From a virus: a stretch of 64,000 bases of DNA. The stretch spans positions 1 through 64,000 of IMG/VR virus record IMGVR_UViG_3300020190_000042. One strand, given 5' to 3'. The translations under genes and the position numbers were made by a program. The notes beneath the pieces are model-generated. The model worked only from the letters and a program-made list of their open reading frames with translations, was not told the origin of the DNA and did no database searches. How positions within the stretch are numbered: position 1 is the first letter of the stretch; the number at the start of each line of letters is the position of its first letter. Shown piece after piece: positions 1-22,964 of this stretch.

Positions 1-107
1 ATTCACACAAGGAGGCTACATCCACGCTGCACGAGTATCAGCTCGCAGACTATTCGGCTGACTATTACATCAGCACACGTTGCTGCAAAGCATGGAGGGA
101 ATCATGA
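1..107 (+). CDS. Partial (5'-truncated) small early protein, paralog of 1525..1689
   Basis: Frame from nt 3 reads SHKEATSTLHEYQLADYSADYYISTRCCKAWRES*; its stop overlaps the ATG at 104 (ATGA). Confidence 0.7.
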   Translation, partial: SHKEATSTLHEYQLADYSADYYISTRCCKAWRES

Positions 108-280
108 ACCAACAACAGTTCGACAAGTTGTACACAACCATCTACGACGCTTATGAACAAGCTGCACTAAAAGATGAGTACGTTCGTTCCACATTGGGCG
201 ACGCATTGGCTCACATGATCCTGCTCAAGCAACGCAAACTAATTACACCAACTGAACATGTACAACCCCGACTTTCCTGA
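104..280 (+). CDS. Hypothetical early protein
   Basis: ORF 80..280; ATG at 104 coupled to the upstream stop. Confidence 0.7.
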   Translation: MNQQQFDKLYTTIYDAYEQAALKDEYVRSTLGDALAHMILLKQRKLITPTEHVQPRLS

Positions 281-443
281 GTTCCACAAAGATCAACTCC
301 TCGCTGTAGTTAATCACTACATGCAGTCCGACATGCGCAAACATCTAATGCGCGAATGTCCCGCAGCGTATAACTCACTGTGCGGCAGGACTGTTGTCAC
401 CTCGCAGGTAGAAGATAACGGGGACAAAGTAATCTCCCGCTAA
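258..443 (+). CDS. Hypothetical early protein
   Basis: 61-aa ORF whose TAA stop is the loop of hairpin repeat 1. Confidence 0.65.
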   Translation: MYNPDFPEFHKDQLLAVVNHYMQSDMRKHLMRECPAAYNSLCGRTVVTSQVEDNGDKVISR

Positions 444-452
444 CGCGGGGCC
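434..452. repeat. Early-region hairpin repeat, copy 1 (CTCCCGC-TAAC-GCGGGGCC)
   Basis: Read directly; followed by CACACAATTACAC (457-469) and ATG at 477. Confidence 0.95.
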
Positions 453-476
453 ACCTCACACAATTACACTGCGATC

Positions 477-671
477 ATGATTGAACTTACACAATGTGAT
501 GAGTACGGTGTACACTATTGCACCGACACTTTCCTAACAATCGAAGATGCCAAAGACGCACTGTGGAATCTTGAATGTGCACTTGACACTGCTACCAACG
601 CGTCGCGTGCGTATTCTCTCCAAGGTGTAATCGCTGAGCTCCGCGAACTTATTTACGAAACTGAATCATGA
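477..671 (+). CDS. Hypothetical early protein
   Basis: 64-aa ORF directly after repeat 1. Confidence 0.7.
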   Translation: MIELTQCDEYGVHYCTDTFLTIEDAKDALWNLECALDTATNASRAYSLQGVIAELRELIYETES

Positions 672-898
672 CTCTCCCCGCTTACACAATCGCAAACAGT
701 GAGTTCACCTACGAACCACGCGCAGGTTTAACTAGCCTTGACTGGTACAACATCGCACGCTGTGCGCGTCAACGTATGCAACTAGCACACCACTATTACA
801 AACAGGAGGATCCTGAAGCTGGCCTGAACCTATGGAAGCGCGAACGTGAAACGTTCTGGCGTATGAATAGAAAGTCTATCCCAGATCACTTTGTGTAA
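668..898 (+). CDS. Hypothetical early protein
   Basis: 76-aa ORF with ATGA coupling. Confidence 0.7.
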   Translation: MTLPAYTIANSEFTYEPRAGLTSLDWYNIARCARQRMQLAHHYYKQEDPEAGLNLWKRERETFWRMNRKSIPDHFV

Positions 899-903
899 CT
901 AAC

Positions 904-1113
904 TCAAACGCCACGCAGGCCAATGCCGCTGATCTGATTCTGTAACTGTAACAACGTCTCTTTATGTTGAGCAGGATCACCTAACTCACCCCGCATAATC
1001 ATTTTATACAGTATCCTAGCTTCCTCACGTTGACGCGTCCTGTCCCCATAAGATGATGCCAGCGCAGGATCATTCTCCTCTGCTGTGAACACTTCACCTG
1101 CGAGTCGCATCAA
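904..1113 (-). CDS. Small protein with N-terminal RLAGEVF motif; lone minus-strand gene in the early array
   Basis: Fills the gap between + strand genes; N-terminus nearly matches RIAGEVF of 44201..44449. Confidence 0.7.
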   Translation of the reverse strand: MMRLAGEVFTAEENDPALASSYGDRTRQREEARILYKMIMRGELGDPAQHKETLLQLQNQISGIGLRGV

Positions 1114-1172
1114 CGTGTACCAAACCCATCGCTTCAGTCTAACCCAACAACAACACTAACCCCATCAACATC

Positions 1173-1520
1173 ATGCGAGTAATCGAACAGCAAATGCTGG
1201 ATGCAATCCGCAACCGCAAGGATTGGAAGAACGCAAACACCCGTGTGGAGGTAACACATTTCGCCCACGGTGATCGTGTTATCGACCGCATCAATGTGTA
1301 CCTGCACGGTAACAACATTGCTCGGATTGAACCCGACTGTGTTCGCATCTGTGACTGCGGGTGGCAGACACCGACAACAAAGTCACGACTTAATGTAATC
1401 CTGCACGACCTTTGTGAGGCAGGTATTTATCAGAAGAACCATAAGTGGTTTGGTGTTGCAATCGAAGAACAAGATTGGGAGATTGAGGAGAACAGCCAGC
1501 ACATCTTTGTGAGAGGCTGA
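1173..1520 (+). CDS. Conserved-type cyanophage hypothetical protein
   Basis: 115 aa; MRVIEQQM...VYLHGNNIA...GWQTPTTKSRLN resembles a common cyanophage family; A/C-rich leader. Confidence 0.8.
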   Translation: MRVIEQQMLDAIRNRKDWKNANTRVEVTHFAHGDRVIDRINVYLHGNNIARIEPDCVRICDCGWQTPTTKSRLNVILHDLCEAGIYQKNHKWFGVAIEEQDWEIEENSQHIFVRG

Positions 1521-1524
1521 ATCA

Positions 1525-1689
1525 ATGCCGTATTACATCCAGCGTAATAGTGAGGGCTTAGTCGAAACTGTGGACGAAGTTGATGATAGTAAGGAAGCGT
1601 ACAGGCTGGCAGCTGAGTACAACTCAGCAGATCAGGCTGCACGTTATTACGTTAAGCGCACGCCATGTAAAGCGTGGCGCGAACGTTAA
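1525..1689 (+). CDS. Small early protein (54 aa, not in ORF track)
   Basis: MPYYIQRNSEGLVETVDEVDDSKEAYRLAAEYNSADQAARYYVKRTPCKAWRER*. Confidence 0.75.
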   Translation: MPYYIQRNSEGLVETVDEVDDSKEAYRLAAEYNSADQAARYYVKRTPCKAWRER

Positions 1690-1693
1690 CCCT

Positions 1694-1712
1694 CTCCCGC
1701 TAACGCGGGGCC
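1694..1712. repeat. Early-region hairpin repeat, copy 2 (CTCCCGC-TAAC-GCGGGGCC)
   Basis: Followed by CACACAATTACAC and ATG at 1740. Confidence 0.95.
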
Positions 1713-1739
1713 GAATCACACAATTACACCAACATCACA

Positions 1740-2159
1740 ATGTCTTACACACAACACGCCGCAACAGCTACTTGTCAGATTACGAGTGTTCTCGACACGA
1801 GTGATCTAATCTCGCAGGTCTACGATTACCTAACTAACCACGGGGATGAAGCTCCTACTGAACTATTTAACTGCAGTTCTTCTGATGAGTTCTTTGACAT
1901 CCTCGAAACTTATGTAAGCGTCAGCGACAATATGCTGACCATCAACATGGACACCGAAAAAGTTAACTCTGACGGGGAAGTGTTTGACTTTCTGACTGAT
2001 CACTACGCCCACTTAATGAGCAGCGAGTTTATGAAAGTTGTGTGGGTGAGCTACGACAGTAGAAGCGGTCTGTCTGCAGACTGCACTTATTATGACAACC
2101 AAGGTAACGTGATCGACATTGAGAAACTACTCAAAACCCAGCCAAAGTCGGCTATTTAA
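1740..2159 (+). CDS. Hypothetical acidic early protein
   Basis: 139-aa ORF after repeat 2. Confidence 0.8.
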   Translation: MSYTQHAATATCQITSVLDTSDLISQVYDYLTNHGDEAPTELFNCSSSDEFFDILETYVSVSDNMLTINMDTEKVNSDGEVFDFLTDHYAHLMSSEFMKVVWVSYDSRSGLSADCTYYDNQGNVIDIEKLLKTQPKSAI

Positions 2160-2178
2160 CTGACGGAGACACATCACC

Positions 2179-2370
2179 ATGAGATTTTTAGTAACTGAGA
2201 TTGAGTTTGACTTCGATGACACCGCACCTACGGGTTATCGAGAAGATCTAACTTGTGAGGTCTGCACTACAATTTGGGACGCAGACGATGAAGATGATTT
2301 AGTAGAGGAAATTACCTGTGCAACGGGTTGGTGCATCAAAGGTCTTAATTATCAACACGTTTTGGTGTAA
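2179..2370 (+). CDS. Small acidic cyanophage-type protein
   Basis: EIEFDFDD...WDADDEDDLVEEITCATGWCI. Confidence 0.75.
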   Translation: MRFLVTEIEFDFDDTAPTGYREDLTCEVCTTIWDADDEDDLVEEITCATGWCIKGLNYQHVLV

Positions 2371-2375
2371 CAATT

Positions 2376-2531
2376 ATGTATCCACTCGAAGCATCCGATG
2401 AGTACGGTCTGCAAGGATTAGCAAATCGAGAGGATTTGCTGCAGTGGCTGCAATCGTGGCTACTGGACCCTGACAGCAGAGAATGTAAATTGGAGAAACT
2501 TTCAGATTTCAAACCTGACGACTACAACTAA
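2376..2531 (+). CDS. Small hypothetical protein (51 aa, not in track)
   Basis: ATG 2376 to TAA 2531, tightly packed between neighbours. Confidence 0.55.
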   Translation: MYPLEASDEYGLQGLANREDLLQWLQSWLLDPDSRECKLEKLSDFKPDDYN

Positions 2532-2533
2532 TC

Positions 2534-2701
2534 ATGGACATTTACAAACGCGTACATGGACAATCAGCGCAGGATAAATTGCGCGAACTGGTTGATCTCC
2601 ACGGGTACGAATTGTTTATTGCGCGGGCATTGTTGCTACGCGTCGATGACAAAGTATGCGAGGACTTGTTGGATGACATAGCGGAGGGCCGCATTATTTA
2701 G
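2534..2701 (+). CDS. Small hypothetical protein (55 aa, not in track)
   Basis: ATG 2534 to TAG 2701, ending 3 nt before repeat 3. Confidence 0.6.
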   Translation: MDIYKRVHGQSAQDKLRELVDLHGYELFIARALLLRVDDKVCEDLLDDIAEGRII

Positions 2702-2704
2702 TCT

Positions 2705-2722
2705 CTCCCGCTTCGCGGGGCC
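2705..2722. repeat. Early-region hairpin repeat, copy 3 (CTCCCGC-TTC-GCGGGGCC)
   Basis: Followed by TACACAATTACAC and ATG at 2756. Confidence 0.95.
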
Positions 2723-2755
2723 GCCTTACACAATTACACCATCATTACTAACATC

Positions 2756-3160
2756 ATGACCGGCAACAGTTCCGATGACGGCAAAGCACCCATCGTTCTC
2801 GTCATCGACCGCAACATGGACAACTTCGTTCAACACTACAGCATCAAACATCTAGAACCTAAAGGCTACGGATTGTGGTGGATTGATTCCTGTGGATCAC
2901 GATCTGTGCACTATTACGCACCCAGCGCAAACAATAATACCCGCGATCATTACGACACCGCAGAAGATCTGCCTGAAGATGTCTACAACAGCCTGCTCAA
3001 GTTCCTCACCACGCACTTAAAAATTGATCTGGACAGTCTCACAGTGCTGTACCGCATGGAAGATCCCGGACTTGGCATCATGCTGCCCGAGGATTACGAA
3101 GTCTTAAAACAAGGCGGCGTGCCTGATGGTTGTATTCCCGTCAAAACTGCCACTAAATAA
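2756..3160 (+). CDS. Hypothetical early protein
   Basis: 134-aa ORF after repeat 3. Confidence 0.75.
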   Translation: MTGNSSDDGKAPIVLVIDRNMDNFVQHYSIKHLEPKGYGLWWIDSCGSRSVHYYAPSANNNTRDHYDTAEDLPEDVYNSLLKFLTTHLKIDLDSLTVLYRMEDPGLGIMLPEDYEVLKQGGVPDGCIPVKTATK

Positions 3161-3162
3161 CA

Positions 3163-3330
3163 ATGACAAATCACACAGTTACACTCAGCAAACACACATG
3201 GTTGGGGGTACTAATTCACCTCAAAGAGACTGTGGAAACGATCCCAGTGTCAATAATCGAGCCAGATCCATGGGAATGTGTACAGAAAGCGATCGAGGAG
3301 ATCGAGCAGTTTGTAACTTTGGAGGATTGA
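3163..3330 (+). CDS. Small hypothetical protein (55 aa, not in track)
   Basis: MTNHTVTLSKHTWLGVLIHLKETVETIPVS...; preferred over the overlapping 3126..3350 frame. Confidence 0.6.
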   Translation: MTNHTVTLSKHTWLGVLIHLKETVETIPVSIIEPDPWECVQKAIEEIEQFVTLED

Positions 3331-3353
3331 CTTTATTGCCACACGGTTGATCC

Positions 3354-3371
3354 CTCCCGCTACGCGGGGCC
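3354..3371. repeat. Early-region hairpin repeat, copy 4 (CTCCCGC-TAC-GCGGGGCC)
   Basis: Followed by an A/C-rich leader and ATG at 3399. Confidence 0.95.
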
Positions 3372-3398
3372 GATTCACACACCTACATCTTCATCACA

Positions 3399-3632
3399 AT
3401 GTCACCCCTACCTCATACAGTAGAATCTCTGCTGGACCTGTTCACCGTATCCCAACTGCAACAAGTTTTCGAACATCAACTAAACCTTGATGAAACCGTA
3501 GACGATTGGGAGCAACGTCACCTGCTTGCCGTCGATTACCTATGTAACTACAGCGAGCTTATGTATTCCAAACAGCTCGCTAAATACTGCGACAAACTAC
3601 GCACCAAACTCAACCTCTACGATAACAACTAA
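3399..3632 (+). CDS. Hypothetical early protein
   Basis: 77-aa ORF after repeat 4. Confidence 0.7.
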   Translation: MSPLPHTVESLLDLFTVSQLQQVFEHQLNLDETVDDWEQRHLLAVDYLCNYSELMYSKQLAKYCDKLRTKLNLYDNN

Positions 3633-3886
3633 TGACACCAACAACTTTCTCTGTTTCCTTCGATCCATTAGCAGCACACTGCTTAGAGGAAATTGCCGCT
3701 GGTGACTATCGAACCGTCGAACACTTGATTCAGATACTTGTGTACCAAGGTATGCAGTCGTATCAGTTTGATCGTGAGCTAGTTGTACCCAAACGACCCG
3801 AAGATCACGACCTTAGCCTTAATAATAAGTTTCAGTATTACACAAACGAAGAAATCGTCGAATCCTTCAAACCTAAAATCAAATGA
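3632..3886 (+). CDS. Hypothetical early protein
   Basis: 84 aa, TAATG coupling. Confidence 0.7.
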   Translation: MTPTTFSVSFDPLAAHCLEEIAAGDYRTVEHLIQILVYQGMQSYQFDRELVVPKRPEDHDLSLNNKFQYYTNEEIVESFKPKIK

Positions 3887-4107
3887 TTAACACCGTAACT
3901 AAGCACACTCGCGCATCTGCTGCGGGCAAACTCATTTATTGCCCACACTGCGGTGTCGAATCTCGTGTGTACCACTTCAGTTTCTCTGCTCTCGTATGCC
4001 AGAAATGCAACAGAATCGTGGATAAATACGAGTATCTGCTGCAACCCTTGCGGTCCTCAGATACATCTGGCTACAAGTTTTTCCTCAATCGACTCACAGT
4101 AGTATGA
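3883..4107 (+). CDS. Zinc-ribbon small protein
   Basis: CPHC...CQKC motif pair. Confidence 0.7.
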   Translation: MINTVTKHTRASAAGKLIYCPHCGVESRVYHFSFSALVCQKCNRIVDKYEYLLQPLRSSDTSGYKFFLNRLTVV

Positions 4108-4436
4108 CTTACTTTGTACATTACGAAGACAGCGCAAACGTCCGGCGTGTCAACAACGTGTTGCACATTTGCACATCCAATGACGCTAACGGCAACCCGC
4201 GCAGACTGATCGTGTGTCTGGGATCTTACGGTCACATCGTTGCAACATTCGACGAAGGATGTGACTGGGGCGGACTTTACCAACTCGATAAAGACTTCGC
4301 TAGTTGGACAAATCGGCACAGCGTTCAAGTCAACGTAACCGTGTCTGAGTTCAATCGGTGGAGTTCATTTGAGCCCGGTAAGGTCTACAAAGTATCCACG
4401 CAGCCTGAACTTCCCGCCTTCCAACAACAGATTTAA
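4104..4436 (+). CDS. Hypothetical early protein
   Basis: 110 aa, ATGA coupling. Confidence 0.75.
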   Translation: MTYFVHYEDSANVRRVNNVLHICTSNDANGNPRRLIVCLGSYGHIVATFDEGCDWGGLYQLDKDFASWTNRHSVQVNVTVSEFNRWSSFEPGKVYKVSTQPELPAFQQQI

Positions 4437-4438
4437 TC

Positions 4439-4669
4439 ATGTCCTTTTACTTCATCGAAGTCACCGATACGTTCGGCGGCCAAGCAAATTACAGCTGGGT
4501 CGAAAAGTATTGCATCGAAGCAACAGACGCTACAGCGGTACGGCGAGCCAAACGTGAGATTGGTTGGAGTGGTGTTCGGTGTGACCGTCAAGACTGTGGG
4601 GAGTACATAGAATTACGTCCACGCGGTATGGCGCAGGTTGCGTTTATTCAGCGCGAGCACACTAGCTGA
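4439..4669 (+). CDS. Conserved-type small phage protein
   Basis: EVTDTFGGQANYSWV motif. Confidence 0.75.
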   Translation: MSFYFIEVTDTFGGQANYSWVEKYCIEATDATAVRRAKREIGWSGVRCDRQDCGEYIELRPRGMAQVAFIQREHTS

Positions 4670-4673
4670 CTCA

Positions 4674-4691
4674 CTCCCGCTACGCGGGGCC
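4674..4691. repeat. Early-region hairpin repeat, copy 5 (CTCCCGC-TAC-GCGGGGCC)
   Basis: 4 nt after the stop at 4669; ATG at 4715. Confidence 0.95.
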
Positions 4692-4714
4692 GCCGCATAC
4701 AACACCTCCACATC

Positions 4715-4909
4715 ATGAACTACTACAAAGTTAAAGTTCAAATCGAATCAAATCAAGGCGAGCATCTCGTAATGGAGACGCATCGTAATTTTGTTGCGGA
4801 TCAAGATGTATTTCTCTTCGCAAGCGGATTTGCTGATGGTTTCGCCATGGCACATGAAGGATCTGTGCTGGAGAAACAGATCGAGAAATTAAATGATGAT
4901 AGGAGCTGA
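4715..4909 (+). CDS. Hypothetical early protein
   Basis: 64-aa ORF after repeat 5. Confidence 0.7.
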   Translation: MNYYKVKVQIESNQGEHLVMETHRNFVADQDVFLFASGFADGFAMAHEGSVLEKQIEKLNDDRS

Positions 4910-5032
4910 GAGGAGCGAGTGGACTCACTTTGCACATTCTTTAGTCTTAAACGCACAGAAAACTATAACTATTTATAGATTTAGAAATTCGTGTTAAATT
5001 TACTTAGGTAATTAAAAGTTTTTCTTAATTCT

Positions 5033-5060
5033 TTGACAACCAAGCTACACATTGTATGAT
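5033..5060 (+). promoter_or_regulatory. Sigma70-type promoter
   Basis: TTGACA-N16-TATGAT downstream of a very AT-rich tract. Confidence 0.6.
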
Positions 5061-5166
5061 CTACAAAGCATTTAGTTTGCCTGAATGTTAAACCTTAAAC
5101 AATTATTTGTTTCAAACGCGAACACTAACTAAACTGATTAAACTCATGAGCGATTATTTCTGATCT

Positions 5167-5349
5167 GTGTCGTTTCAGCACACCGTTACCAAAACTCGCA
5201 AGTTTGACGTTTTTGCTCGTAAAGGCAAAACTGGCTGGGCTTATAAATGCACAATCGAAGCTAAGACTGAGGCCCACGCTAAAGAGCTTGTGCTCGAAGA
5301 ACATGTTGATCTCCAAAGGCATCAGCTGGCGGTTTACCCTAAACGCTAA
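5167..5349 (+). CDS. Small hypothetical protein
   Basis: 60 aa, GTG start, downstream of the promoter. Confidence 0.6.
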   Translation: MSFQHTVTKTRKFDVFARKGKTGWAYKCTIEAKTEAHAKELVLEEHVDLQRHQLAVYPKR

Positions 5350-5380
5350 TTATTTACCTTTGGTAAAGTTACAGAGGCGC

Positions 5381-5457
5381 CGGGACGCCTGAAGGCTGTC
5401 GCGTTTTTATGGGAGTTTAATCACGACATGTGTGGGGTTTGATTCCCCCGGTCCCGA
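5381..5457 (+). ncRNA. tRNA-like structured element (degenerate)
   Basis: CGGGAC/GTCCCG outer stem, GCC-TGAA-GGC arm, TGTCG/CGACA arm, GGGG-TTTGATT-CCCC T-arm-like hairpin; no CCA. Confidence 0.4.
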
Positions 5458-5555
5458 CTCACCTATTTACATAAAACTCCCAAACTGCTATGCTCCGCAT
5501 ACGGGCGGCACCGGCCCCAACCAACGTGGCGCGTCTACACTCACATTAAACTCCT

Positions 5556-5978
5556 ATGACCATTAAAACCTCTGAGCTTGTTTCACTAGGTGCAGTTGCC
5601 GCTGAGGCATTCGATGACTTCGACACTGCACAGAAACAATTAAACGATTCCTTTGGTATTCCCTACACCGCAGCCAAAGATAACTTGTTGAGAGACGTAA
5701 CTATTGCCGAGTCAGAAGGCGTAGATCTTCGTCTGTTTTCGGGAGAAGAAAGCCGGTTCCGATTCCCTACCTTTAATACAAACATTGTGGTGCGTATCCA
5801 CCGTAAGCCCACGCAGCACACCAAGCTGGAAAAGCTCGCGGCGAAAGTTACAAAGCTCGAAAGCGAATTGAAGCTGGCGAAAATGTGTCTAAAACATGAA
5901 GCTGAGCAACTTATTGCCGCAGGCGCTTGTGACGAATTTACAGACAAGATTGTCTTAGCCTTCACTCGGATCAAGTGA
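5556..5978 (+). CDS. Hypothetical protein with coiled-coil C-terminus
   Basis: 140-aa ORF. Confidence 0.8.
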   Translation: MTIKTSELVSLGAVAAEAFDDFDTAQKQLNDSFGIPYTAAKDNLLRDVTIAESEGVDLRLFSGEESRFRFPTFNTNIVVRIHRKPTQHTKLEKLAAKVTKLESELKLAKMCLKHEAEQLIAAGACDEFTDKIVLAFTRIK

Positions 5979-5983
5979 GACTC

Positions 5984-6145
5984 ATGCTTAACACCATTAA
6001 CAACGTGATCTGTTACGGGATCGGCACCGTTGCTTGCGCCATCTCCTTCATGGGTCTCCTGGGTGTCGATCCGAATGTGTCAAGTACTACAAATCAATCC
6101 TGTAAAAACCATGAAGCAGGTGCCATTCTGTGTAAAACACGCTAA
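5984..6145 (+). CDS. Small membrane protein (53 aa, not in track)
   Basis: MLNTINNVICYGIGTVACAISFMGLLGV... single hydrophobic helix. Confidence 0.55.
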   Translation: MLNTINNVICYGIGTVACAISFMGLLGVDPNVSSTTNQSCKNHEAGAILCKTR

Positions 6146-6184
6146 TCTCTGCTGAGGGGTCAGCCCCTAAGCGATGGAGTACGC

Positions 6185-6215
6185 GAGCCCTCTCCACGGA
6201 GAGGGTTCTTTACTT
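6185..6215 (+). terminator. Terminator- or attenuator-like hairpin
   Basis: GAGCCCTCTC-CACG-GAGAGGGTTC followed by TTTACTT. Confidence 0.5.
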
Positions 6216-6249
6216 GCGTTCCGCACAACAATTTGTCTAACTAACCCAA

Positions 6250-7449
6250 ATGACCACCCATTACTTGCTGACCTGCTCTATTTCTGCAGACGTTCGGCAA
6301 TCTGTTCAAATCAAGTTTGATGACCTCAAACTTCCTAAAACGGTCGTTGAAACTCTTCAACGCAATAATACCGTTAGCCTCCGTCCTAATCTCTCCAATG
6401 CGCTTAAAGCAGAGCTTGATTCACTTCGCGTCATGCAGCGTGATCTTTATGACAGCTACTGCATTCATAGTGGTGACGCTCACTTTGTCACTTCTTCCTA
6501 CTTTTATCTGGCTAATGAACGAATAAAGGATATTCGTAAAGAAGCTCAGAACGCAAACGACAGGCTCAAAGACCTGTGGGAACAAGAGTTTGAATCCTGG
6601 CAGCAAACTGCAGAGGGCATACTAAAACCCCTCTTCCGAGATTCTGACGAATTCAAGTTGGCCTTTGATGCCTACATGAAGTTTTTCCCCACGAAGGAAG
6701 AATACAAAGCTCCAATTCGTGTTTCAGTTCTCGGTCCTCTTCCTGTTTCTATGGAACGGGTAAGCAAACCGATTGAGGGAGATTTCCAATCTCTTGTCGC
6801 GTATGAGAATCAGATCAACACGCAACAAGTTCTTGAAGCAGCGCGTAACAATGCTGCAGATCGAGCACTTTTAATCGGAGCTGAGCTTCTCGATGATCTT
6901 GATGTTCGATCAATTACCAAGATCGGTCGCCAACAAACAGGTGGCGATAAAAAACGCGGTAGCTGGCAGATCACTGCACAGAAACTAAAGCTGATTAGCG
7001 ACAGCGTACCTGGGTTTGAGAATCTCTCTGATCTAGCAGACCGATTGCTGAAAGCTGGCAACGACATTCAAGCTAATGATCGTGCTGTACGGCAAAAGGG
7101 AACGAAGGATTTCTACGCGGTACAGGACGAAATCCGTTCGGAGTTGTCAGAAATCTGCCAAACCCGCGACAGTTCTAAAGGCTTAGAGATGCTCAAGCAA
7201 TCTCTTGCACTTTCATCTACTTACAAGCTGTTGTGTGACCGCATAAAGAATGCAGAAAACTCAAACGCCCTAAATCTTTTGATCAAAGACGCCAACGTAG
7301 AGATTGACATTTACGCTCAGCGTTCCAAACACCTCAACAAATTGATTGAGCAACGTAAGGAATTAATTGGAGCTGCAGGCGAAAATCTTGATCAACTACT
7401 TTCTGATTTGAAAGAACCCGAACCTGAATCTAAGGAGATTGATTTCTGA
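6250..7449 (+). CDS. Helical protein of the AAA-VWA module (DUF3150-like)
   Basis: 399 aa, helical; sits upstream of the AAA and VWA genes; family call from memory. Confidence 0.55.
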   Translation: MTTHYLLTCSISADVRQSVQIKFDDLKLPKTVVETLQRNNTVSLRPNLSNALKAELDSLRVMQRDLYDSYCIHSGDAHFVTSSYFYLANERIKDIRKEAQNANDRLKDLWEQEFESWQQTAEGILKPLFRDSDEFKLAFDAYMKFFPTKEEYKAPIRVSVLGPLPVSMERVSKPIEGDFQSLVAYENQINTQQVLEAARNNAADRALLIGAELLDDLDVRSITKIGRQQTGGDKKRGSWQITAQKLKLISDSVPGFENLSDLADRLLKAGNDIQANDRAVRQKGTKDFYAVQDEIRSELSEICQTRDSSKGLEMLKQSLALSSTYKLLCDRIKNAENSNALNLLIKDANVEIDIYAQRSKHLNKLIEQRKELIGAAGENLDQLLSDLKEPEPESKEIDF

Positions 7450-7701: not shown

Positions 7702-8889
7702 ATGAACGACGCACTTTTTACTAAGCTTCAGAATTTTCGTGGCGCACTCAATGCCGCGACTTTAGAGCGTGAGTTTGTTATTGACGGTTTGCTAGCGACT
7801 CTTTTGAGTAAGCAAAACGCTTTTTTGTTGGGGGTTCCTGGCACGGGTAAGTCTGATCTCGTCCGTAACATTTGTCGAGGGATTTCTAAAGCAAACTACT
7901 TCGGATACTTACTCACCCCGACTACAGATCCCTCGGAAGTATTCGGTCCAGTAGCAGTAACTAAACTGCTTAAGGATGAGTACACCCGAGATGTTTCAGG
8001 TTATCTGCCTGACGCCCACATCGGTTTTCTGGATGAGCTGTTTAGGGGGAGCTCAGCAATCCTAAACTCGCTGCTGACTCTTCTTAACGAACGCACGTTC
8101 AATAACGGTAAAACTGTTGTTGAAACGCCCATCCAGTCTATTGTTGCTGCCACGAACAGTTGGCCTGACGAAGAATCTCTCCAAGCATTTGCGGATCGAT
8201 TTTTGTTCCGCCCTACCGTGGATGTTCTTCGCAAGCCTGTGTCAAAGCGCCGCCTAGATGAGTGGGCGCTCGGCCTGGTGGATCGACCAGAAGTCGGCGA
8301 GCATCTAACTCTTAAAGAACTTCAAGAACTTCAACAGGCAGCCAACGACATTACAGTTTCCGAGGAGTTCCTAGACCGCTTCAGTAACGTCTGGGAAATG
8401 CTCTCTAGCCGTAACATCACCATCAGTGATCGTCGGCGAGTACAAATACTTAAGTTCCTTAAGGCTTGGGCTGTAGTTCAAGGTGACGACGAACTTTATG
8501 CAGAGCATCTGCACAACAGTTTGATCCATATCGTGTATCAAACGCGAGAGGATCAAGACATCATCAAAGAGGTTCTTGAGCAGGAGATTCCCACGGCGGA
8601 TCGGGTATTTAATGACGCCAAGCGGGCTGCTGCAGGCATCATGGCGGAATACACTTCGCACTCACACAAGTACAAAGTTAAAGGTTTGGGTGATCTAAAT
8701 GATTTTGTGGTTAACCTCCGCAAGTATCACAAGGACATGCAGACAGTCCGCGATAAAGTAGGGGAGATTCTGGACGGAACCCGCTTCAGAATGTCTGTGA
8801 CAACACGGGCATCTGGGGTAAAGCTGCAGCAGAATCTGCAAAACCACTGCGATACCCTGGCCCGTGCAATCAGCGAAATCAGTAGCTGA
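7702..8889 (+). CDS. MoxR/RavA-like AAA+ ATPase
   Basis: Walker A GVPGTGKS, TDPSEVFGP, Walker B FLDELFRGSSAILNSLL, ATN sensor, DRF, SDRR. Confidence 0.92.
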   Translation: MNDALFTKLQNFRGALNAATLEREFVIDGLLATLLSKQNAFLLGVPGTGKSDLVRNICRGISKANYFGYLLTPTTDPSEVFGPVAVTKLLKDEYTRDVSGYLPDAHIGFLDELFRGSSAILNSLLTLLNERTFNNGKTVVETPIQSIVAATNSWPDEESLQAFADRFLFRPTVDVLRKPVSKRRLDEWALGLVDRPEVGEHLTLKELQELQQAANDITVSEEFLDRFSNVWEMLSSRNITISDRRRVQILKFLKAWAVVQGDDELYAEHLHNSLIHIVYQTREDQDIIKEVLEQEIPTADRVFNDAKRAAAGIMAEYTSHSHKYKVKGLGDLNDFVVNLRKYHKDMQTVRDKVGEILDGTRFRMSVTTRASGVKLQQNLQNHCDTLARAISEISS

Positions 8890-9097
8890 CCGTTTTGATC
8901 TAAACGAAACGGACTTCGACGCAGATGGTGTAGCAGTTAAATACGATCAGGATCACAGCGGCAACGACTGTTACCATGTGATCCTGAAATTGGGTGTCGT
9001 AGCCACGGTCTCCTCGGCTCATTTAGTGGAGGAGAAAAAAATTCAATTACTTCGTTTCTATCCTGTAGATCAACATGAACACAACAACTCATTCTGA
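8864..9097 (+). CDS. Hypothetical protein
   Basis: 77-aa ORF filling the gap between the AAA and VWA genes. Confidence 0.5.
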   Translation: MQSAKSVADRFDLNETDFDADGVAVKYDQDHSGNDCYHVILKLGVVATVSSAHLVEEKKIQLLRFYPVDQHEHNNSF

Positions 9098-10625
9098 GAT
9101 CATTCGGATCGTAGACAACGAACCGCTGACACTTGCGTGCTCAGCATTAGCAGATTTTCTGTGGCAAGATTTCATACGTGATGCGCGCCCGATCGTCACT
9201 TATTTAATTGATCATTACAACATTAAACAGTTATCACGGTTTGGTAAGGAGATCTTCGAGCGTCTGTACAGTGCTGATAATGTATCCTGGTTAGTTACCG
9301 AAGACGCCTACGAGGATTATTTCCGGAAGGTGTGCGATGGAGATACCGCCGCAATCCCAGAAGGTTACAAACCAGAAAACGGGATTTGGTACTCAATCAT
9401 GAGCGATTTGAGCCAAGCTGCTGCGTGGCCTGAGCTCGTGCGTCGGTCCATGGGCGACCAGTTCAACGCAGGCAACAACGCTGTAAACATCATCAATGAA
9501 CTCTCTAAAGTAATCGAGCAAGCAATTGAGAGCGGACAATTTGATGTACAGCTTCTAACTTCTGCAGATCAAAAGCTTCAAGAGTTACGCGAACAATATC
9601 AAGAGGCGATCGACAAAGGCGACAAAGAGAAAGCGGAACAGATTCGCACTGAGGGTAAGAAACTCGGGGAAGCAATCAACGAAGCGATTCAAGAAGCAAA
9701 AGATAAAATTCAAAGCCAGTCGCACAAAATTATCGACAAGGCAGTTGAAAAAAATGATGACATAAATGAGGCTATCAGTGGCTTCCACGGTGGCACCGCC
9801 GGCACCGGTAAGCATGGTGCAGACTTAGAGGCAAAGAAAGCGCTTGCAAAAAAACTCCGTAATAACAAAGAACTCGCAAAGCTGACGCAGAAATTAGGAG
9901 CGCTCCGCAGGATTTGGCACGAGCGTAAGAAGGCGCGCCGAACCAAAGATACCTACGAATCAATTACAGGCGCTCGGTTTGGCAACGATGTAACCAAAGC
10001 TTTCCCGGTGGAAGTAGCTTTGGCTGCGAGCCCAGAGGGCAGCGCACTGTTTGCTCTGAAGTATTCTCAAAAGACACTATTTATCAAAGACTACACATCA
10101 ACACGTAAAGATATTGGCAAAGGCCCAATCGTCATGTATGTGGACGTGTCCGGATCGATGCACGGCGATACAGAGGTATGGAGCAAAGCTATCGCGTTTG
10201 TAATTGCGGAGGAAGCTCTGAAACAGAACAGAGAGATACAGATTTACCTGTTCGACACACAGATCAACGGTTCTGTGAAACTTCAGAAAGATCGTAAAGA
10301 CAACAAGGAGCTGATCGATTTTGTCTGCACTTGGACCCTCGGCGGAGGCACTAGCTTTAATGCCGTTCTGGGCCACGCGCTGGACAAAGCGAAGATCTCA
10401 GAACGAGCTGATGTGCTAATGATTACAGATGGACACAGCGAAGTTCATGATAATTTTATTAGGCGCTTAAACTCCTTTAAGCAAGCCAGCGGTGTTCAGT
10501 GGAGCACAGTCTGCATCAATACAGACATCCCTAGTGTTTGCCGTGCCTTTAGTGACGAACTCTACTCAGTCAATTTGTATAATCCGGACGTAGCAGTTGA
10601 CGCTATCCAAAAATGTTTAAGGTAA
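9075..10625 (+). CDS. ViaA-like VWA (MIDAS) domain protein
   Basis: DVSGSM, GGGTSF and MITDG MIDAS motifs in the C-terminal domain. Confidence 0.9.
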   Translation: MNTTTHSEIIRIVDNEPLTLACSALADFLWQDFIRDARPIVTYLIDHYNIKQLSRFGKEIFERLYSADNVSWLVTEDAYEDYFRKVCDGDTAAIPEGYKPENGIWYSIMSDLSQAAAWPELVRRSMGDQFNAGNNAVNIINELSKVIEQAIESGQFDVQLLTSADQKLQELREQYQEAIDKGDKEKAEQIRTEGKKLGEAINEAIQEAKDKIQSQSHKIIDKAVEKNDDINEAISGFHGGTAGTGKHGADLEAKKALAKKLRNNKELAKLTQKLGALRRIWHERKKARRTKDTYESITGARFGNDVTKAFPVEVALAASPEGSALFALKYSQKTLFIKDYTSTRKDIGKGPIVMYVDVSGSMHGDTEVWSKAIAFVIAEEALKQNREIQIYLFDTQINGSVKLQKDRKDNKELIDFVCTWTLGGGTSFNAVLGHALDKAKISERADVLMITDGHSEVHDNFIRRLNSFKQASGVQWSTVCINTDIPSVCRAFSDELYSVNLYNPDVAVDAIQKCLR

Positions 10626-20210: not shown

Positions 20211-22964
20211 ATGAAGTTTTATTACAGCCGAAATAAAGAGGTCCGGAATCACGTCAACTCTCGGACCGGCAAAATCTCGGCTGGCGGCAACTTCAAAGCA
20301 TTCAACGAGAACTGGGAGGCTCAGACCGATACCGTCCAGGCTATTGCTGATAACGTCACGGAAGGCCATGGTCTGTGTGCGTGGCACCTTAACGACGGTA
20401 AAAGATCGCGAAACGAAACCGGTTGTATAAAAGCTGGTCTGTTAATTATCGACGTTGATAATCAAGCTGACGGTAAAGATAAAGATGGAAACAAAATACA
20501 AGATCAACAGTTAGATGAAACTCAAGCACTCGAATTAGAGATCTGCAAAAAATATCTGAGCTTTGCATATTACTCGCCAAGTAATGAAGAAGGCTGGCCT
20601 AGGTTTCGTTTAGTTTTCGGCTTAGAAAAAGAGATTATCGATACTGGGTTTTATCAGTGGCTAACTCGGGAAATCTCTAAACAGATCCCAGGCTCAGATA
20701 TCCGCGCAACGCAAGTACCGAACCTGTTTTACGGAGCAAAAGAAAATTCAAAACTTATTTATATAAGTAAGAACTACATACCAGCTAGCAAAATTGACGA
20801 GGCAAACCAAAAATATTTATCTCTACCTAAAGACACAACTGATCGCGGGGGTGCCCACGAAGCTCTGGAAGCCCGTGTGGATCCTACGGGAGTCAACCTT
20901 GAGCAGCTCTTAGCTGCAAGCGTTCGAGGCATCCTCGACGGCGAAGAGGTCGAAGATCGATCCTTTGCCATGGCGGCGGCACTGAAGGAGATAATCGGCT
21001 GGTGTAACTGGCTGAACGAAGCGGGGGTTGCGGTTCGTAAACACCCCCTTGACACAGCGAACCAAGTGTTCGAGAATATCTACGAGTACGACCCCCAACT
21101 CGACGGCAAATTTGACCGGATCCTAGGCAGCATCACGGATGTTGCTTCCCTCAAGCCAGCGATCTCGATTGCATCGGAATCAGGGGAGGTAGCAATCTGG
21201 AAAAAGATAAAAACGCAAGATCGCGTTTTGTTTGATGCCGTTTGCCCAGATACGGTTAAAAATCAACTTAAAAGTCAGAAACCGAAGCCTTCAAACTCAA
21301 TCCTGACGTTTGAAGACCCAACATTAACACCTCAAATTACATCAACAAAAACAACGGATACTCCTATGGCACCCACGCCAACTCCTTCTTCCCCTGCTCA
21401 ACTCGTTCAGCTTCAGTCCAACAACAAACAGTTCTCAGAGAACGACATTGCCGACGTAATCGTCAACAATTACGGCGATAAGTTCTTGTTCGATTCCAGC
21501 TTGGATGAGTTCTTCGCGTACGACGAAGATGAGGGTATATGGTACATAAACGACGAACATCACATTAAGCGCCGTATTGTAAAAACTCTGGACACCTTTG
21601 TCACCGCAGGGGTTTTGCCAAAGTACAACTCAGCTACTGTCAGCTCTGTCTTCCATATCCTTAAGGCAAAGCTGCTGAAGTCCATTGACGGCGGACGCAG
21701 CTCAATCTGGAAGGCGGGACGCGGCAAAATCGCTTTTAGAAACGGCGTCTTCGACACCAAAGATCAATCTTTTAAAGACGGCAATCAGAAAGATCTGTTC
21801 TTTCAGACGAAACTTGCCTACGATTTTGACCTCAGTGCCACGTGCCCCGAGTTTTTAAAGTGGCTCGGATGGGCTGTCGGAAGTGACAAAGTAGTCTTAA
21901 TCCGGGCTTACTGCCGTGCTGTTCTGACGGGCTATACAACAGGCGAGAAGTTTCTGCACCTGATCGGCGCGGGTGGCTCGGGTAAATCCACGCTGCAGCA
22001 GGTGCTAATTGCGCTTGCTGGTTTCAGCGGCACTCACACCAGTGATCTTGAAACGATCGAGACAAACCGATTCGAGGCTCATAGCTTGATCGGTAAGCGC
22101 CTGTTGCTACTGACGGACGAAGCTTCGTTCAGCAAACGTTTGGACACTCTTAAGAAACTTACCTCCGCATCTGACACCCTGCGCGCAGAACGTAAGTACG
22201 GTACTCAAGTTATAAACTTTAAACCCGAACTGCTGGTCTCGATCGCAAGTAACGAGCACATCAGCTCCTCGGACATCAGTAGCGGTCTTGAGCGTCGGCG
22301 TCTGACGATCGTGATGAACAACGTTGTGCCGCCATCACAAAGGCGAGATCTGATTAGTGTGTACTCCGATAGAGTCGAAGGTGAGCTTGCCCCTGAGCTG
22401 CCGGGAATCGCTGCCTGGGCACTCAACATGCCGATCGACGAGATGCGCGAGGTGTTGGCCAACCCCGTCAAGTTCTGTCCACATCTGAACGCTACGAACC
22501 TGGAAGCTCTGGTATTCAACAACCCGATTTGCGCATGGCTTGCAGAATGCTGCTTGTACGCTCCCAATAGTCACACCACGCTCGGCGGTGGCGCTTTCCG
22601 ACCCAGCATTGACGAACAGGAACGCGGTCTTTACATCAAAAACGCGTATCAGGAGATTTACGCGTCCTACGCAAACTTCGCTAAGTCAAACGGATACAAG
22701 GCTGCAGCTAAACCACGTTTTGTGGATCGTTTAAAAGAAACTGTAAACAACGTGCTCAAGATTCCTGGTGTTGAGCCCAAGTTTGTAAATGGTCGTGCGG
22801 TTGTTAAAGGTCTAAGACTGAAACCTTATGACATGACGACAGATCGGGCATCCTGCGGTGACACGCGTCTGCCGTCACCTATAGAATACGCGTCGAATCC
22901 AAATCTTTGGGACGCTGCTTTTGCAGCACACGATACACCAAAACAAGACGACACCATTAATTGA
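20211..22964 (+). CDS. Primase-helicase (N-terminal primase-like domain plus D5/P4-type SF3 helicase)
   Basis: IIDVDN and YYSPS...RFRLVF primase motifs; Walker A GAGGSGKST, LTDE, ASN. Confidence 0.92.
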   Translation: MKFYYSRNKEVRNHVNSRTGKISAGGNFKAFNENWEAQTDTVQAIADNVTEGHGLCAWHLNDGKRSRNETGCIKAGLLIIDVDNQADGKDKDGNKIQDQQLDETQALELEICKKYLSFAYYSPSNEEGWPRFRLVFGLEKEIIDTGFYQWLTREISKQIPGSDIRATQVPNLFYGAKENSKLIYISKNYIPASKIDEANQKYLSLPKDTTDRGGAHEALEARVDPTGVNLEQLLAASVRGILDGEEVEDRSFAMAAALKEIIGWCNWLNEAGVAVRKHPLDTANQVFENIYEYDPQLDGKFDRILGSITDVASLKPAISIASESGEVAIWKKIKTQDRVLFDAVCPDTVKNQLKSQKPKPSNSILTFEDPTLTPQITSTKTTDTPMAPTPTPSSPAQLVQLQSNNKQFSENDIADVIVNNYGDKFLFDSSLDEFFAYDEDEGIWYINDEHHIKRRIVKTLDTFVTAGVLPKYNSATVSSVFHILKAKLLKSIDGGRSSIWKAGRGKIAFRNGVFDTKDQSFKDGNQKDLFFQTKLAYDFDLSATCPEFLKWLGWAVGSDKVVLIRAYCRAVLTGYTTGEKFLHLIGAGGSGKSTLQQVLIALAGFSGTHTSDLETIETNRFEAHSLIGKRLLLLTDEASFSKRLDTLKKLTSASDTLRAERKYGTQVINFKPELLVSIASNEHISSSDISSGLERRRLTIVMNNVVPPSQRRDLISVYSDRVEGELAPELPGIAAWALNMPIDEMREVLANPVKFCPHLNATNLEALVFNNPICAWLAECCLYAPNSHTTLGGGAFRPSIDEQERGLYIKNAYQEIYASYANFAKSNGYKAAAKPRFVDRLKETVNNVLKIPGVEPKFVNGRAVVKGLRLKPYDMTTDRASCGDTRLPSPIEYASNPNLWDAAFAAHDTPKQDDTIN

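Follow-up and report, generated by a model that had tools for sequence, protein, structure and literature searches.

Background

So far, the T7-like polymerases of N4-like phages are the only enzymes for which hairpin promoters have been established. The promoters of phage N4 consist of a GC-rich heptamer between inverted repeats whose variable bases need only pair, and the closing C:G pair together with the 5' G and the 3' A of the loop is required for supercoil-driven extrusion (PMC4496689); in phage LUZ7, nine mapped hairpin promoters head early genes (PMC9163698). The DNA mini-hairpin motif GCGNAGC or GCGNNAGC owes its stability to a sheared G-A pair and the C:G closing pair; a loop of this kind is present in the ssiA hairpin of RSF1010, which is read by the primase RepB', and the primase sites of phages St-1 and alpha3 carry GCGTTAGC (PMC13037366). 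The promoter early stem-loop (PeSL) elements of T4-type phages are stem-loops followed by a sigma-70-like early promoter (-35, N17, -10) (PMC2839356, PMC4122927). Here we describe a short stem-loop element that recurs at the heads of early gene units in the IMG/VR virus record IMGVR_UViG_3300020190_000042, of which positions 1 to 64,000, given as one strand, form the window. A preliminary description had taken the five stem-loops of the window for hairpin or cruciform promoters, or single-stranded DNA (ssDNA) signals, of first-injected genes, which also serve as recombination joints.

The record of 75,226 bp (CheckV completeness 93%) represents an uncultured S-EIV1-like cyanophage; its large terminase is 48% identical to the counterpart of Synechococcus phage S-EIV1 (KJ410740), the sole isolate relative. 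Genes for a family A DNA polymerase, a D5-type primase-helicase, a portal protein, a major head protein, and a MoxR-like ATPase with a vWA partner were also identified. With the ATPase as query, 58 related IMG/VR loci of 51-96% identity were retrieved, each spanning about 20 kb (individual loci bear L numbers below). Five complete relatives of 80-87 kb are designated G001-G005, and the record itself G000.

Five hairpin modules head early gene units

The pattern CTCCCGC-N3-5-GCGGGG has exactly five matches in the window, all on the plus strand (positions 434, 1694, 2705, 3354 and 4674), while none of 100 dinucleotide-preserving shuffles contained a match; the whole 75,226-bp record holds no further copy, and none on the reverse strand. 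The full form is CTCCCGC-(loop)-GCGGGGCC, with the loops TAAC, TAAC, TTC, TAC and TAC in this order, so that the exact search confirms the five copies with invariant arms and variable loops of the preliminary description. In each of them a 5-bp stem (CCCGC/GCGGG) precedes G-C-C and a G-poor, A/C-rich leader, and the copies head units of one to five small, tightly packed open reading frames (ORFs). The positions of the modules and leaders, with the ORFs that flank them, are as follows.

Module 1, 434-452, plus strand: CT, stem CCCGC (436-440), loop TAAC (441-444), stem GCGGG (445-449) and GCC; ORF 258-443 ends with the loop TAA (441-443) as its stop codon
Leader 1, 453-479, plus strand: G-poor and A/C-rich, with a CACACAATTACAC box; ATG at 477 of ORF 477-671
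Module 2, 1694-1712, plus strand: stem 1696-1700/1705-1709, loop TAAC, 3' GCC; 6 nt lie between the upstream ORF 1525-1689 and the stem
Leader 2, 1713-1742, plus strand: CACACAATTACAC box; ATG at 1740 of ORF 1740-2159
Module 3, 2705-2722, plus strand: stem 2707-2711/2715-2719, loop TTC (template GCGAAGC), 3' GCC; 5 nt lie between the upstream ORF 2534-2701 and the stem
Leader 3, 2723-2758, plus strand: TACACAATTACAC; ATG at 2756 of ORF 2756-3160
Module 4, 3354-3371, plus strand: stem 3356-3360/3364-3368, loop TAC (template GCGTAGC), 3' GCC; 25 nt lie between the upstream ORF 3163-3330 and the stem
Leader 4, 3372-3401, plus strand: CACACACCTACAT; ATG at 3399 of ORF 3399-3632
Module 5, 4674-4691, plus strand: stem 4676-4680/4684-4688, loop TAC, 3' GCC; 6 nt lie between the upstream ORF 4439-4669 and the stem
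Leader 5, 4692-4717, plus strand: ATG at 4715 of the last early ORF 4715-4909 (MNYYKVKV...)

All five copies sit between the stop codon of one ORF and the next ATG, with 27, 30, 36, 30 and 26 nt from the hairpin end to the ATG in copies 1-5. Their earlier placement at gene boundaries, about 25-35 nt ahead of an ATG, holds for all of them (26-36 nt) with a correction at copy 1, whose loop itself provides the stop codon of the upstream ORF. The leader word ACACAATTACAC follows three of the five copies, as had been noted before. A T-tract after the hairpin is lacking at each of the five copies, and a scan found no sigma-70-like -35/-10 at any of them, both in agreement with what had been described.

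The stem-loop is conserved and covaries in related cyanophages

Related IMG/VR loci contain about 70 distinct copies of the element; the 27 loci concerned reach down to 60% identity of the ATPase, and the alignment comprised 59 copies (56 distinct). In 56 of 56 distinct copies, the inner two pairs are G-C and C-G; the loop begins with T throughout the alignment, and C as its last base and G-C as the 3' flank are each conserved at 90% or more. Loops are 3 nt long in about 60% of the copies and 4 nt in about 35%, rarely 5 nt, and comprise TTC (16), TAAC (14), TAC (9) and TCC (6), besides TGC, TGAC, TAGC and TTGC (one each). The preliminary description had made its reading depend on relatives keeping T...C at the loop ends, and this proved to be the case in about 68 of 70 copies, the sole exceptions being one TAT and one TCACT.

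The outer stem positions vary in a concerted manner. Columns 5-16 are CG in 52 and UA in 4 of the 56 copies, and columns 6-15 are CG in 45, AU in 9, and GC and UA in one each; arms such as CCAGC/GCTGG, CTCGC/GCGAG, CCGGC/GCCGG and CTTGC/GCAAG were observed. Changes on both sides of a pair occurred in 16 cells as compared to 2.4 in shuffles (none of 500 shuffles reached 16), and 92.6% of the cells are paired, versus 39-55% with the partner slid. Despite 15 A-U/U-A cells, neither a mismatch nor a G-U wobble was found in the four inner pairs of the 56 distinct copies; all mismatches are confined to the outermost pair. Since the search tolerated one unpaired position in five, single mismatches at the next two pairs would have been visible.

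Covariation at orthologous sites provides evidence free of ascertainment. The site before the MNYYKVKV gene, i.e. the ortholog of module 5, has CCCGC/GCGGG in the window and in L126, CTCGC/GCGAG in L127, and CTTGC/GCAAG in L132 and L175; likewise, the site before the MIELTQ gene has CCAGC/GCTGG in L127. Between the window and L126, the early region shows 80.0% nucleotide identity over 3,481 aligned bases, yet in the four orthologous copies of L126 all 68 hairpin and flank positions outside the loop centre are identical (68/68), with three of the four loop centres changed. The hairpin arms are conserved by selection, and the structure is selected for pairing; the compensatory changes at orthologous sites thus bear out the hairpin that had been drawn from the window. 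The element is also strand-specific, occurring in one orientation, at the heads of gene units. The family is absent from S-EIV1 itself (KJ410740), and a BLAST search of one module against isolate phages gave no relevant match.

A GC-rich inverted repeat in a fixed place before gene units could also be a double-stranded palindromic operator for a dimeric DNA-binding protein. However, the spacing of the half-sites varies between 3 and 4, rarely 5 nt, and within the single locus L165 the arms CCCGC, CCAGC and CCGGC coexist, each matching its own partner. Half-sites that differ within one genome yet match their partners are predicted by intrastrand pairing and not by direct read-out, so that an operator is hardly to be expected here.

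Stop codons, leader and spacing

Loops of the type T[AG][AG]C serve as stop codon of the upstream ORF in 15 of 21 cases (about 7 expected), including that at 441-443. The upstream gene thus often extends into the 5' arm, and the element can overlap upstream coding sequence. The distance from hairpin to ATG has a mode of 27 nt, and it is fixed because the hairpin is placed between the stop codon and the leader.

The A/C-rich leader ending in ACATCA(CA)ATG also follows stop clusters (TAACTAAC) at many junctions that lack a hairpin, including 1140-1172. Since it occurs without the hairpin, it represents a generic translation leader devoid of a Shine-Dalgarno sequence and is not part of the hairpin signal, a qualification of the preliminary description, which had noted it after each copy; no Shine-Dalgarno sequence was seen anywhere in the early region. 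A role of the leader as a promoter-specific initial transcribed sequence was rejected for the same reason. Hairpin-less leaders (1111-1172 of the window, and many junctions in L130, L132, L141, L149, L154 and L158) are composed of TAACTAAC with stops in several frames, an A/C-rich tract, and ACATCATG.

In 46 of 70 copies, the distance from the hairpin end to the ATG is a multiple of three (27, 30, 36, 39 or 42 nt), which probably reflects triplet-like ACA/TCA repeats in the leader. Where the loop is a stop codon, the flanking ORFs often share the frame, with an open linker of 9-12 codons.

A proposed template-strand DNA start signal

On the template (minus) strand, the conserved core of the element is GC-G(N)NA-GC, i.e. 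either form of the mini-hairpin motif. The five copies of the window read GCGTTAGC (twice), GCGAAGC (once) and GCGTAGC (twice) on this strand, and all fit the motif. The N4 promoters P1 (GTTGC-TTC-GCAAC) and P2 (AAGAAGC-TCC-GCTTCTT), read directly from NC_008720, share the coding-strand core GC-TNC-GC, and the GNA/GNNA reading of the template strand in the preliminary description was well founded. The invariant letters of the element equal the mini-hairpin and the N4 core. The free loop middle, the fixed loop ends, the lack of wobble pairs, and 3- and 4-nt loops that both fit the DNA motif favour a reading at the DNA level, because an RNA stem would not need these letters. Moreover, a stop codon within the loop would be harmless to a DNA signal, whereas in RNA the terminating ribosome would melt the stem.

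We tentatively prefer to read the element as a DNA-level start signal in the template strand, designed like the N4 and LUZ7 promoters; we infer that DNA rather than RNA is the form that is read, that the output is a transcript, and that a reader exists. The 5-bp inverted repeat, which adjoins or overlaps the stop codon of an early gene and is followed at once by the generic leader of the next unit of 2-5 genes, would enable the template strand to form the very stable mini-hairpin GC-G(N)NA-GC in negatively supercoiled or transiently single-stranded DNA. RNA synthesis would then start rightwards just beyond the G-C-C flank, as in the N4 and LUZ7 hairpin promoters.

A number of observations weigh against this reading, among them the outcome of all searches for a polymerase given further below. 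The virion RNA polymerase of N4 needs a template purine at the loop centre (-11) and starts at a template C at +1, which is 11 nt from the loop centre and follows a 4-nt A-tract ruler. A loop-centre purine on the template strand (loops TTC and TCC) is present in 22 of 32 triloops of the cyanophage element, but nine TAC loops (template T) and one TGC loop (template C) do not comply, and two of the three triloop copies of the window are TAC. Unlike N4, the flank is GCC-R (G-C-C-(A/G/C)), with neither an A-tract ruler nor a +1C. Nearest-neighbour DNA folding gives equal energies for both strands, its parameters carrying no GNA bonus, and thus does not separate them. A T precedes the stem in 59% of the copies (33/56), allowing a possible sixth U-G pair that would form in RNA only. 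The module is absent from the orthologous F12-F7 junction of L130 (the site of module 5) and from the entire early regions of several close relatives. In relatives with upstream sequence, the first 6-10 rightward early ORFs are devoid of the module, and modules begin further in, so that an injected enzyme could not start at these first ORFs. The assignment of the element to first-injected genes in the preliminary description has to be abandoned on this account.

The record begins inside the early block and does not include the non-coding region of 1-1.5 kb which in relatives precedes the first rightward early ORF (L162 1100-2440; L130 2693-2750; L174 102-115). This region contains a long (GT)n/GCGTGTG tract, repeated TGTAAC(T)A words and GATCA palindromes, and a TGAGGGA-TTC-TCCCTCA hairpin lies immediately ahead of the first rightward early ORF.

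Search for a polymerase reader

The PF00940 profile, which detected both N4 polymerases as positive control, gave nothing at E<=10 in G000 or G001-G005. An expression for the T7-type motif B matched only the DNA polymerase, a DxDGD motif was absent from every large ORF of two genomes, and tblastn with 22 N4 proteins was negative. Scans with Pfam and PHROG profiles of 27 of the larger ORFs of G000 (all of at least 371 aa) and of a 656-aa protein of G001 revealed no RNA polymerase. The latter, which is the largest protein without assignment, is of low complexity and rich in Ala, Pro, Gly and Arg, and an ESM Atlas search with it was negative. The check for an RNA polymerase elsewhere in the genome, recommended in the preliminary description, thus returned none, either T7-like or two-barrel, in the record or in the five complete relatives.

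It seems rather unlikely to us that S-EIV1-like cyanophages use N4-style start signals without a T7-like or two-barrel RNA polymerase, the reader being a new kind of enzyme or mechanism. If so, the AEP (archaeo-eukaryotic primase) primase-helicase or an unrecognised protein might make the transcripts, or host RNA polymerase might be brought to the extruded cruciform by a structure-specific DNA-binding protein of the phage.

The primase-helicase and a possible priming signal

The primase-helicase is a protein of 917 aa which combines a D5_N/SF3 helicase with an N-terminal domain containing an invariant DxD motif. The AlphaFold model of its N-terminal 400 residues has a predicted local distance difference test (pLDDT) score of 82.9 and best matches the AEP domain of the cyanophage S-2L PrimPol (E 2e-4) and the primase RepB' (E 1.9e-3).

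20211-21410, plus strand: N-terminal AEP (Prim-Pol) domain of the 917-aa primase-helicase, with the DxD motif, from the AlphaFold model

Among the enzymes found in the genome, the AEP domain would, judging from this model, be the sole member of a class with known readers of ssDNA hairpin signals, and it is a candidate reader only. The element might accordingly resemble the single-strand initiation (ssi) signals and those of G4 type, with RSF1010 ssiA and the complementary-strand origins of G4, St-1 and alpha3 as precedents, as it has a hairpin with a GGCC flank and the phage encodes an AEP primase with a predicted RepB'-like fold: the primase-helicase would recognise the template-strand mini-hairpin plus GGCC on exposed ssDNA and start rightward DNA synthesis. 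The TAAC copies carry on their template strand the same GCGTTAGC as St-1 and alpha3, the encoded AEP primase has a model resembling RepB', and the fixed distance to the ATG may be trivial, the leader being the sole intergenic spacer. However, the five to six copies are confined to one strand, with none elsewhere or on the other strand of the genome, they are spaced by gene units and not placed as a single origin, no AT-rich unwinding element adjoins the modules, and many relatives share the primase yet lack the module. We consider such a priming signal improbable.

A possible RNA-level function and host-type signals

The early block might also be covered by one long transcript made by host RNA polymerase from upstream non-coding promoters, with the hairpin acting as an intercistronic processing or stability stem, a possibility which we take seriously, if with some doubt. 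The stem would direct endonucleolytic cuts in the adjoining single-stranded GCC/CA-rich segment or block exonucleases, resulting in stable mRNAs of 2-5 genes. No special polymerase would be necessary, and none was found; canonical host signals are in use nearby; and an upstream promoter must exist, as in relatives the element is missing from the first early ORFs. Its position immediately after stop codons, an RNA folding energy of -8.7 to -9.9 kcal/mol next to an unstructured leader, the T before the stem that permits a sixth U-G pair in 33 of 56 copies, the U-G found as outermost pair in six, and the dispensability of the element at some orthologous junctions would all suit an RNA stem.

On the other hand, the invariant inner pairs and the T...C loop ends have no RNA rationale and would call for a sequence-specific RNA-binding protein; UNC triloops are not among the stable classes of RNA loop that are known. 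The four inner pairs lack any G-U wobble in spite of the 15 A-U/U-A cells, a stem of 5-6 bp is far too short for RNase III, terminating ribosomes would unwind the stem in the 15 copies with a stop codon in the loop, and no Rfam family matches positions 1-7000 at E<=1. Taken in this way the data still leave us with the template-strand DNA signal as the preferred reading.

Three host-type or RNA-type assignments were rejected. Conservation does not reach past six pairs, which speaks against an RNase III site or a more extended RNA fold. An intrinsic terminator does not apply, there being no U-tract at any copy; terminator-like sites nearby have stems of 7-8 bp and a T-rich tail. A sigma-70 promoter in the leader was dismissed, since the hexamer 15 nt past the stem (TACACC, CACACT, CTACTC and others) lacks a T at -12 or -7 in most copies; a few variant copies have a TACAAT hexamer, which is not general.

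The best sigma-70-type site of the first 7 kb is TTGACA-16-TATGAT at 5033-5060 (11/12 to consensus), located within an AT-rich non-coding gap (4910-5160) that follows the last early ORF; transcription of the next block by the host probably begins there. A terminator-like hairpin (6185-6208, CCCTCTC-CACG-GAGAGGG plus T-rich tail) lies between ORF 5984-6145 and ORF 6250-7449; its 7-bp GC stem covaries, with different stems in many relatives. Since these nearby host signals are unlike the element, the latter is neither a sigma-70 promoter nor a terminator.

A GC-rich non-coding stretch at 5345-5556, before ORF 5556-5978, contains a piece resembling a tRNA T-arm (GGGGTTTGATTCCCC, about 5433-5447) inside a GGGAGTTT...AAACTCCC pairing. 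T-arm-like pieces occur at the matching place in L126, L127, L132 and L136. In 5345-5556, ARAGORN and Rfam found nothing, and the fold z-score of -0.84 is not significant.

Gene shuffling in the early region

The entire early region is mosaic among relatives, and the element might be a PeSL-like recombination joint only, i.e. a shared 45-nt cassette by which early genes are shuffled through homologous recombination. Family F13 is followed across the module by at least six different families, and F27 and F35 each have four different upstream neighbours, always across the module. Nevertheless, the same successor is kept at 32% of the junctions with the module in both genomes as compared to 20% of module-free junctions. 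That part of the recombination-joint proposal which concerns partner swapping across the element stands for some genes, whereas synteny breaks do not seem to be enriched there. Neither of the two indels that separate the window from its 96% relative L126 has modules as its borders, so the suggested gene gain or loss bounded by the repeats was not observed with the closest relative. The compensatory stem changes and fixed loop ends are unexplained by a joint, for which homology alone suffices, and no module has the sigma-70 promoter of the PeSL type, which disposes of the proposed PeSL membership. A function as joint only is very improbable in our view; a pure recombination joint and a double-stranded operator are both unlikely.

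Neighbouring genes

The segment 2268-2361 of ORF 2179-2370 shows 81-86% nucleotide identity to a hypothetical gene that S-RIM8, S-M1 and further T4-like cyanomyoviruses carry, and ORF 1173-1520 encodes a Kyanoviridae Gp96 domain protein; these similarities indicate probable gene exchange between unrelated cyanophage lineages. A small minus-strand ORF of family F26 (904-1110 in the window) is conserved within the rightward early block of several relatives. The rightward gene next after it (1173-1520) never has a hairpin module. The MoxR-like AAA+ ATPase and the following protein with a C-terminal vWA domain (metal ion-dependent adhesion site (MIDAS)-like DVSGS) are encoded at 7702-10625. In N4, gp24 and gp25 hold a place analogous to this pair; BLAST-level similarity to them was not found.

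Comparison with known systems

The same invariant mini-hairpin, kept by compensatory mutation, occurs across widespread and almost uncharacterised freshwater and marine cyanophages in which the kind of enzyme that reads hairpin promoters in N4-like phages was not detected. If it is a start signal at the DNA level, there is a new reader to discover, and the rules by which very short cruciforms are extruded would extend past N4; as an RNA element, it would be a compact signal for processing or stability, specific in sequence, that acts in cyanobacterial hosts. In both cases, the element of about 45 nt offers a handle on early gene expression in the S-EIV1 lineage, with clear mutational predictions.

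With the PeSLs, the cyanophage element has in common that a repeated stem-loop cassette precedes small, shuffled early ORFs, some of which change neighbours across it, whereas it lacks the sigma-70 promoter, and synteny breaks do not seem to be enriched at its position. In the T7 early operon, the host transcript is cut at five RNase III sites, which are irregular duplexes of about 20 bp, i.e. approximately two helical turns. The two systems are alike in having about five intercistronic stems between a stop and the next start in an early operon of small units, which in T7 is transcribed by the host, but T7 has no shared loop sequence, while the cyanophage stems are of 5-6 bp with fixed loop ends. 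The mini-hairpins described by Hirao and the sites of G4, St-1, alpha3 and RSF1010 ssiA share the motif with every template-strand copy; in contrast to the five one-strand copies at the heads of gene units of a double-stranded DNA phage, however, the G4, St-1, alpha3 and ssiA sites act on single-stranded genomes or at a single oriV.

The N4 P1-P3 and LUZ7 promoters differ from the element in several respects. They are read by an injected T7-like virion RNA polymerase, whereas no T7-like RNA polymerase is detectable in the cyanophage; 4-nt loops are common in the cyanophage element; the loop-centre purine is not kept throughout, and the A-tract ruler with its +1C is missing; and the element is not located ahead of the first early genes. 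Common to both are a short hairpin with a 5-bp stem and a 3-nt loop, a GC heptamer with the closing C:G pair and the template G...A, a coding-strand core GC-TNC-GC corresponding to the template GCGNAGC, and outer stem positions that are free as long as they pair, which in the cyanophages is evident from their covariation. In both, several copies head small units of early genes, all in the orientation of the genes.

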